The position numbers were made by a program, and so were the translations under genes. The notes under the pieces are model-generated. The model was not told the DNA's origin, ran no database searches, and saw only the letters and a list, made by a program, of their open reading frames with translations. From a virus (taxonomy: Duplodnaviria > Caudoviricetes), in the IMG/VR virus record IMGVR_UViG_3300042935_000374, positions 1 to 33,014 of that record: a stretch of 33,014 bases of DNA. The stretch is one strand, 5' to 3'. This document shows positions 30,937-32,304 of this stretch, piece by piece; positions within the stretch are counted from its first letter, which is position 1, and each line of letters begins with the position of its first letter.

Positions 30937-31121
30937 TTACCCACTTTCTGCATTTGCACTCTAGTTACATGATTGCAACATAACGGAAGTTCACTAAGGC
31001 GAACGAACACTTCAATAGTGTTATCGCAACTAGGACATTTATATTTTCCTTGCGCCACCAAGGAACCAGTGGTCGCCCCTCTCCGAGGGGCAACCACCTT
31101 TGCTACTGGGTTATCTGACAT
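30933..31121 (-). CDS. Small zinc-ribbon protein
   Basis: YKCPSC..P.CCNH...M. Confidence 0.6.
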   Translation of the reverse strand: MSDNPVAKVVAPRRGATTGSLVAQGKYKCPSCDNTIEVFVRLSELPLCCNHVTRVQMQKVGK

Positions 31122-31729
31122 TATGAATTTCCCTTTAGGAAATCCTCAATTTCATTAACCAAAGAAGCACCTTGTGCTTCGCTAGCCATTGCAACCAACT
31201 TCTCGTTCACCTTGTGTGTGAGGTCAGTCAACATTTGCATCGCCACGCCATTGTGGGAGTTCGTGTTAATTTCCTCCGCCATAGTGCTTACAAGCAATTC
31301 CAATTCCTCTTTGGTTGCCAAACCGAACGACTCTGCAAGCCCCAACACAATCGTGGCTGTCGTAGCCTCGTTGTATGTTTCTGCAACATGTTCAGTGAAC
31401 TTCGTTGTGAGGAACTGAAAGAAACTTTCAGGCAAATCATAATTCTCACCGTCATACTCACCATCAGGTGATTCGCCAGCAACAACTACGCAAGGACCAA
31501 CAAGGTTCTTACCGAACAATGCACTAGCGAACCAGTTTTGTTCCAAACCAATTAGCAAACCCTCATCGTGAACATAACCAACGATGACATGACCACCAAC
31601 CTTGGTGGTAACACAATCAAATGCGCCACCAACCATAGTTTGAATGTCGGTATATTCACCGACCATAACGGGTTCAATCTCAACCCCTATACCACAGGGC
31701 ATAAATGCCCCTGCCACTTGCTTACTCAT
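31121..31729 (-). CDS. DUF3846-like protein with helical C-terminal extension
   Basis: IQTMVGG.FD.V..YVHDEGLL..L..N..AS....LVGPCVV; GGAGG SD before ATG 31729. Confidence 0.65.
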   Translation of the reverse strand: MSKQVAGAFMPCGIGVEIEPVMVGEYTDIQTMVGGAFDCVTTKVGGHVIVGYVHDEGLLIGLEQNWFASALFGKNLVGPCVVVAGESPDGEYDGENYDLPESFFQFLTTKFTEHVAETYNEATTATIVLGLAESFGLATKEELELLVSTMAEEINTNSHNGVAMQMLTDLTHKVNEKLVAMASEAQGASLVNEIEDFLKGNS

Positions 31730-31755
31730 ACATACCTCCAAAGGTACAGACTCGG

Positions 31756-31821
31756 ACTGGAATCATCAGCACGGAAAAGTATCCGTGTTTACCCCCGAAG
31801 GGGTAATTCATCCTTACCAGT
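31756..31821 (-). ncRNA. Type II hammerhead-ribozyme-like RNA with variant core
   Basis: GAA, then stem III UUACCCC-UUCG-GGGGUAA, a single A, stem I CACGGA-UACUUU-UCCGUG, then CUGAUGA, closed by flanking GGA/UCC or ACUGG/CCAGU. Confidence 0.6.
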
Positions 31822-31835
31822 TGTGTTGTGTTTAT

Positions 31836-31865
31836 ATCTTATGCACACCTCCTAGAACTTGTCAA
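31836..31865 (-). promoter_or_regulatory. Host sigma70-type early promoter TTGACA-N18-TAAGAT
   Basis: -35 at 31865-31860, -10 at 31841-31836. Confidence 0.75.
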
Positions 31866-32304
31866 GCACCTTGCTAGTAGCAAGATACCAGTCAAATGCT
31901 TCGCTATGAGTTACGAACACTTCACGGTCACAAACCGCAACGGGGACAACTGTCATGTCCCACAGTTCCACTTGCCACATGTTAATCGCCTCGTTCCAAA
32001 ACAATTCAAACTGGAACCCATTATCCGTAGGCAATGACAAACCTGAACTTGTTGTCCAAAACGGGGACAAAAACTCTCGCAGGTCCGCTTCCTGTTCCGC
32101 ATACTTTGCATCCTTGCGAAGGTCATTCAATCCAAACAGGATGAATGTTTCCCATAATGCGAACCCAAGGAACACTGAAGTTCCAAGGAAGTTCATAAAC
32201 ATTGGCATAAAGCCAGTCGGTAAACCGAACCAGCCGAAACCAACCCACAATGTGAGGGCATACAACCCCCACATCAACAATGTCCGTGCTATTTGCTTTT
32301 TCAT
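31852..32304 (-). CDS. Membrane protein with two N-terminal TM helices
   Basis: GGAGG SD; hydrophobic residues about 8-60 followed by a soluble aromatic domain. Confidence 0.65.
   Translation of the reverse strand: MKKQIARTLLMWGLYALTLWVGFGWFGLPTGFMPMFMNFLGTSVFLGFALWETFILFGLNDLRKDAKYAEQEADLREFLSPFWTTSSGLSLPTDNGFQFELFWNEAINMWQVELWDMTVVPVAVCDREVFVTHSEAFDWYLATSKVLDKF

Follow-up and report, generated by a model that had tools for sequence, protein, structure and literature searches.

Type II hammerhead ribozymes occur around phage genes, and the paper that described them proposes mRNA processing as their role (Perreault 2011, PMC3088659). The same paper documents changes to the core: a natural hammerhead with a U15.1-A16.1 pair self-cleaves less efficiently, mutants at 15.1/16.1 lose activity at least 10-fold, the flipped pair abolishes the contact between A15.1 and G5, a natural U10.1.U11.1 variant was published in 2011, and deviants at multiple positions stand among the inactive candidates (Fig. 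S7 legend). A nitrogen of G10.1 is part of the A9/G10.1 metal site, and a natural A6C phage variant prefers Mn2+ (PMC7151607, in part); a U at 10.1 would lack this nitrogen. AUA was the slowest of four triplets tested after purification, and a viroid hammerhead whose CUGAU is paired cleaves with a delay (PMC1636495, in part). For the haloviruses HF1/HF2 a transcript end has been placed within 3 nt of the cut site (Perreault 2011, PMC3088659, in part). In the literature outside subscription papers we found no published report of both core changes in one hammerhead, and a string search of 11 PMC3088659 supplements gave no match to the U.U clade described below, where gapped alignments could hide one.

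We analysed a 33,014-base contig of a tailed phage, called the window throughout, with terminase, portal, scaffold, major head and tail genes on the plus strand and primase, DnaB-like helicase and PD-(D/E)XK nuclease on the minus strand. Its best capsid match among annotated phages is 41.8%, and it has no close cultured relative; the contig stops at 33014, within the early region. The ribozyme lies on the minus strand amid small genes, upstream of the replication genes and flanked by a 150-aa ORF, whose homologues occupy the same position in relatives, and a DUF3846-like gene. The features of the locus are as follows.

31852-32304, minus strand: upstream 150-aa ORF, with no Pfam or PHROG match; its last codons contain the -35 hexamer.
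31836-31865, minus strand: sigma-70-type promoter TTGACA-18-TAAGAT, 10/12, with a probable start near 31829.
31810-31814, minus strand: conserved A (in 129 of the 133 canonical relatives listed) and stem II 5' strand (11.4-11.1 = GGAU at 31813-31810).
31807-31809, minus strand: G12 A13 A14, from sequence.
31789-31806, minus strand: stem III, 7 bp with a UUCG loop, closed by the flipped U15.1-A16.1 (AU 14, UA 3 in 17 aligned rows).
31787-31788, minus strand: predicted cleavage site A17/C1.1, triplet AAA, from hammerhead numbering.
31770-31787, minus strand: stem I, 6 bp, of which 3 change on both sides.
31781, minus strand: U1.7 (in 129 of the 133 relatives listed), with a predicted tertiary contact to A at 31814.
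31763-31769, minus strand: catalytic core C3-A9, CUGAUGA, from sequence.
31759-31762, minus strand: stem II 3' strand (10.1-10.4 = UUCC), giving the U10.1.U11.1 mismatch and 3 pairs, from sequence and alignment.
31749-31764, minus strand: alternative 5-bp hairpin (31764-31760 with 31753-31749), -3.7 kcal/mol, from folding and alignment.
31732-31747, minus strand: hairpin overlapping the SD GGAGG (31739-31735), from folding.
31121-31729, minus strand: DUF3846-like gene, 202 aa (Pfam PF12957, E 4.7e-7; phrog_3777).

At 31813-31759 (minus strand) lies a type II hammerhead that carries U15.1-A16.1, U10.1.U11.1 and A17. Stems I and III are loop-closed and stem II is open, completing the three-way junction; C3-U4-G5-A6-N7-G8-A9 and G12-A13-A14 are correctly spaced, and position 17 is a single unpaired non-G base, A17 at 31788. 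Where the consensus has A15.1-U16.1 the window has U-A, and where it has an R10.1-Y11.1 pair the window has U.U. A parse restoring A15.1-U16.1 is impossible, as the 3' side reads AAAC and holds no U. An earlier note on this DNA had anticipated much of this: its minus-strand reading matches the sequence, the type II topology and spacing are borne out by the core, the stems and the family model score given below, both core deviations are present, and the cut that it predicted between 31788 and 31787 agrees with hammerhead numbering. Its choice of ACUGG/CCAGU as the stem II that sets the ends of the element has to be replaced, the conserved stem II being GGAU/UUCC. The two helices compete for the same CC, and the outer ACUGG/CCAGU helix is without covariation support (76.5% paired, with 66 of 500 shuffles as high). 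A pseudoknot between loop I and the 3' tail, scored in one register, fared no better (65.7% paired, 205 of 500 shuffles as high). The geometry of a Hoogsteen contact between U1.7 and A is described in PMC11875169 (in part); the window has both bases, neither of which was fixed by our search pattern, and their conservation predicts this tertiary contact here.

The element shares with the RF02276 type II hammerheads (PMC3088659, in part) its topology, the CUGANGA and GAA core, the single base 17 and an intergenic position in phages. It differs from them in having the bases of a predicted U1.7-A contact instead of the pseudoknot between loop I and the 3' tail, in a stem II of 3 pairs plus U.U, and in scoring below Rfam detection. 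Its substitutions are those of the natural U15.1-A16.1 and U10.1.U11.1 variants (Perreault 2011, Fig. 5 and S6, in part), here together and with A17. In the marine flipped variant, by contrast, stem II has C-G as its basal pair and position 17 is C (Fig. S6, layout uncertain). The window, for its part, has near-identical A-U sister alleles. The HF1/HF2 HHphage elements (Perreault 2011, in part) and Bcep176 A6C (PMC7151607, in part) are slow core variants in phages, as the window element probably is, and likewise lie just upstream of an early gene, but their core changes differ. The minimal hammerheads of O'Rourke et al. (PMC11875169, in part) have the same 6-bp stem I followed by an unpaired U, and the same 4-position stem II flanked by A; those constructs are engineered and trans-acting with a GNRA loop, whereas stem II of the window is open and its contact is deduced from conservation.

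Several tests speak to the reality of the motif. An equally strict descriptor had no match in 300 first-order Markov resamples of the window, and the fold has a z-score of -2.74, with 3 of 200 shuffles as good. A covariance model was trained on 25 canonical relatives, all of which lack U.U and the flip; it gives the element 45.7 bits (E 2e-10 by a rough calibration), and the next match within the window reaches 11 bits. This second match, at 2853-2771 on the minus strand (E 0.4), lies antisense within a gene, lacks GAA and is likely due to chance; no second hammerhead was found in the genome of the window. The comparison with Rfam that the earlier note had proposed came out divided: neither the window nor a 301-nt piece of it matched any hammerhead model at E<=10, while the canonical homologue L036 reaches 32.4 bits (E 0.011) with RF02276, whose gathering score is 37. 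Lacking two features of the consensus core and missing the RF02276 threshold (37 bits), the element is a variant and not a consensus member, and the comparison shows that Rfam misses this hammerhead family.

A search by the downstream protein alone returned 43 viral loci. In 13 of them, including all 11 top-ranked, the gene is immediately preceded by a hammerhead, and in 3 more a hammerhead lies about 500 nt upstream. CUGAUGA and GAA are intact in 12/12 of the closest kin (L001-L011 and the window), with N7 allowed to vary. Searching with a family pattern yielded 47 matches at 43 loci. Counting the window as well, 39 are canonical (G10.1-C11.1, A15.1-U16.1, C17), 5 have U.U, A-U and A17, and 4 have U.U, U-A and A17. 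This pattern fixed the core, stem II and 3 stem I pairs, so invariance there is by construction, and stem II, being invariant, is uninformative for covariation. Across 25 aligned canonical sequences, 7 of 15 pairs change on both sides with 100% of cells paired (0 of 500 shuffles), and in a 17-row alignment of close kin 4 of 11 pairs covary, the 15.1-16.1 column being AU in 14 rows and UA in 3. The alignment of homologous leaders that the earlier note had called for thus came out as it expected, with covarying stems and with GAA and CUGAUGA conserved in the closest kin. With a looser canonical pattern, 15 of the 64 parts of the collection gave at least 141 loci, for an estimated total of about 520; 131 loci were parsed into 150 hammerheads, 133 of them non-redundant by tail (L166-L306). 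An SD and start codon lie within 56 nt in 110 of the 133 relatives listed, as against 23 of 132 controls. The ribozyme motif belongs to a widespread phage type II family positioned just ahead of ribosome-binding sites. In genome contigs, matches to the family pattern and relatives of the downstream protein were both 0.

L031, L036, L047, L071 and L078 have 2 or 3 hammerhead copies before successive small genes, where the window has 1. In L012-L014, at about 2365-2460, two long hairpins precede the same DUF3846-like gene family; the first may resemble a twister-sister ribozyme, and those of L012 had no Rfam match at E<=5. In L020-L029 and L032-L038, again with this gene family, TAGATAA(G/C)TC is repeated many times on both strands, and GTCTGTAC sits in the spacer of promoter-like sites; these are likely an operator and a promoter motif. 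The same 9-10 letters recur a single time in the window, at 31752 within the ribozyme tail, maybe by chance.

The U.U clade comprises 14 haplotypes, 3 with U15.1-A16.1 (the window, identical to L001; L002, identical to L135; and L055) and 11 that keep A-U. A metagenome scan gave 75 stretches, of which 16 were parsed, 11 in the U.U clade (one with the flip) and 5 as weak chance parses. The flip occurs in 5 records and 3 haplotypes, and L055 has one additional, compensated C-G pair in stem III, so it is not a sequencing error. Over 480 nt downstream the window is 97% identical to L159, which has A-U, and L055 shares 68% identity with the window and 94% with L125, an A-U allele that has the same stem I and tail as L055. 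Judged from these comparisons, the flipped pair is a minority allele on two backgrounds, and the nearest sisters keep A-U. It either moves by recombination or arose twice; because stem I and tail are identical, recombination would fit its spread better. The flip was not found on a G-C background with the patterns tried, which covered some stem II sequences. Three matches and L162, considered as flips on other backgrounds, do not fold, and 68 further matches to the flip pattern yielded 2 weak chance parses. Two unrelated U.U hammerheads, L324 and L343, both keep A-U and have A17, placing A17 in all 3 of the U.U lineages found (these two and the clade of the window) compared with 14 of the 133 G-C relatives listed. 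The steps seen in the clade are GUC with G-C, AUA with U.U and AAA with U.U. The flipped haplotypes, at n = 3, are too few to show continued core selection within them.

We next consider the layout. A promoter scan found 10 promoter-like sites in 5 kb where 9.1 are expected by chance, so the promoter match alone means little. It gains support from conservation: of the 13 haplotypes that could be assessed (L159, without upstream DNA, was left out), 9 have a site scoring at least 10/12 at the same spot, made up of TTGACA where the 150-aa ORF ends and a consensus-like -10 (TAAAAT, TAAAGT or TAAGAT), while neighbouring codons and spacer vary; the TTGACA-N18-TAAGAT promoter that the earlier note had called is present and conserved to this extent. 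In L006, L007, L111 and L137 another conserved block (GGAGGATGTCTGAC...TCTATATAGT or similar) replaces the TTGACA promoter at the end of the 150-aa ORF and may be a promoter of another type. In 11 of 13 haplotypes, promoter and ribozyme are separated by a gene of about 53 codons, which only the window type and L125 lack; the promoter is within 100 nt of the ribozyme in 2 of 14. Among the 132 canonical phage relatives listed, none has a promoter scoring at least 10/12 in the 80 nt upstream, and the scan listed no terminator-like site between the 150-aa ORF and the ribozyme. The intervening gene and the lack of a near promoter in canonical relatives point to cutting between genes as the role of the family, and they speak against removal of the 5'-triphosphate end, which the earlier note had proposed as the purpose of the element. 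The flip occurs with the small gene (L002, L055) and without it (the window), and L125 lacks the gene yet has A-U; in these sequences, the flip does not go hand in hand with the promoter-proximal layout. RiboJ-type synthetic insulators consist of promoter, hammerhead, hairpin and ribosome site, and cutting standardises the 5' end. The window has the same order of elements, but it is natural and likely slow, and the layout is promoter-proximal in only 2 of 13 haplotypes.

The 3' tail can fold back on the core. The alternative hairpin masks G8, A9 and 10.1-10.3 and excludes stem II. In the lineage of the window the tail and position 10.1 changed in step, the latter from G to U, and 90.6% of cells pair (reached by 5 of 500 shuffles, a weak test because the rows are related). 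Of the 133 relatives listed, 56 have tails at -3 kcal/mol or better; eight genomic control windows give 22-40, 40 shuffles give 20 +/- 4.5, and swapping N7 gives 36. A looser pair-count threshold narrows the gap (56 versus 32-43 among the 133 listed). RUCAG is present in 26 of the 133 tails listed and in 0-4 of the controls, and covaries with N7 (19 U/AUCAG, 6 C/GUCAG, 1 C/AUCAG) over 23 distinct stem I sequences. Among L166-L306 the core-masking registers pair CUGAN with NUCAG or UGAGUC with GACUY. The tail is common to canonical alleles too and so does not explain the flip; a search judged by title or abstract found no literature on natural inactive conformations in phage hammerheads. In secondary-structure energies only, the active structure lies 3.0 kcal/mol above the ensemble in the window, 2.6-5.7 in the U.U clade and 0.6-7.1 in canonical relatives, and stem II has a probability of 0.02 in the window fold, which omits tertiary energy. 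Two ideas about the ribosome site did not hold: that cleavage frees the SD, since opening the ribosome site costs 5.6 kcal/mol before the cut and 6.0 after; and that stem III pairs with the SD, as a 101-nt fold had suggested, since with more context stem III forms with a probability of 0.89. In the 3' product predicted by folding, stem I begins at the first base and is followed in turn by the core-masking hairpin and the SD hairpin.

On balance we lean towards the window copy being a weakened, probably partly active allele, whose slow and partial cut at 31788/31787 would give a message with a protected 5'-OH. The slow variant that the earlier note had offered as an alternative is supported as the likely state by the low activity of the published flipped hammerhead (Perreault 2011, in part), and by analogy the two weakening changes, flip and U.U, would add up, counting against strong cleavage activity. 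Standard hammerhead chemistry would leave a downstream message with a 5'-hydroxyl end that begins in paired stem I; stem I, the hairpin over the spent core and the hairpin at the ribosome site would shield this end from nucleases, and the cut would be one-way. In most relatives the cut would fall between a small first gene and the DUF3846-like gene; in the window, where the small gene is absent, it would trim about 40-42 non-coding nt from promoter transcripts and would also split read-through transcripts from upstream. Two metatranscriptome contig sets (share 0.04) match only parts of the downstream gene. Most simply, the stepwise departure from the optimum would reflect weak selection for speed at this site.

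It is possible, if doubtful, that the allele is instead catalytically dead in the cell and drifts in a recombining population, its stems kept as a structured leader or inherited. Three successive departures from the optimum, with AUA the slowest of four triplets (PMC1636495, in part), would suit such a loss, as would the multi-position deviants among inactive candidates (Perreault 2011, Fig. S7 legend, in part), the competing hairpin that covers the core, and the 30 of 43 loci of the gene family without a hammerhead directly upstream. Set against this, all changes in stems I and III retain pairing, also among flipped alleles, the core is intact, the flip sits on two divergent backgrounds (68% downstream identity), and each change is singly known as tolerated. 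We consider it unlikely that the element is a regulated switch, in which the tail hairpin would be the off state, a ribosome at the SD, a protein or a metal (Mn2+) would turn it on, and the slow core would widen the range of control. A post-cleavage lock explains the tail equally well, canonical alleles have the tail too, so that it is independent of the flip, nothing points to a ligand or factor, and with an opening cost that goes from 5.6 to 6.0 kcal/mol cutting does not turn translation on in the model; this holds even though a core-masking tail is selected family-wide (56/133 listed versus 22-40 in controls, with N7 covarying), the tail changed along with G10.1 to U in the lineage of the window, CUGAU pairing delays viroid hammerhead cleavage (PMC1636495, in part) and the natural A6C phage variant favours Mn2+ (PMC7151607, in part).

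The presence of A17 in all three U.U lineages found, as against 14 of the 133 G-C relatives listed, and of the flip only on a U.U background could mean that U.U, A17 and the flipped pair compensate one another in a fully fast alternative core. We regard this as very improbable, given that 11 of 14 U.U haplotypes keep A15.1-U16.1, that the flip abolishes the A15.1-G5 contact (PMC3088659, in part) and that one lineage amounts to one event. Hardly credible is a chance fold, or a stretch kept for the overlapping 29-codon ORF that the earlier note had raised: the window has no Rfam match, but the 0/300 resamples, the 45.7-bit model score and the covariation of the stems oppose chance, and the ORF, checked across the 14 haplotypes, is not conserved, running from 5 to 45 codons with frameshifts and no SD.

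Alleles at this one gene form a natural series, from canonical (L008-L011) through U.U alone (11 haplotypes) to U.U with the flip (3 haplotypes). L055 and L125 form a near-matched pair of alleles sharing stem I and tail, and the natural A-U relatives are a ready comparison for the double variant, both of whose changes have already been published singly in the sources cited. Such a series could show how much loss of speed a phage hammerhead tolerates, and whether the tail acts before or after the cut. We think it improbable, as a bolder extension, that U.U, A17 and the flip form a recurrent coupled core with its own metal dependence, which with the tail would make a conditional cutter, the fast and slow alleles serving as interchangeable cassettes that set the splitting of early transcripts.

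The surroundings of the ribozyme hold further conserved structures. An SD in or on a hairpin, with a stem covarying around GGAGG, occurs three times on the minus strand of the window (31747-31732, 32324-32310 and 28460-28446); SD hairpins with a covarying stem are also present in L006, L008, L047, L066 and L077, and possibly represent phage-wide translation control. A 22-bp imperfect inverted repeat at 32408-32350 (minus strand), upstream of the 150-aa ORF, is kept in L002-L007, L010 and L011; the hairpin has no Rfam match. Between 32989-32414 (minus strand) of the window and 1244-1813 of L001 a DUF7192 protein is 88% identical, with identical surroundings of the ribozyme, and this divergence may be a further sign of mosaic exchange in the region.
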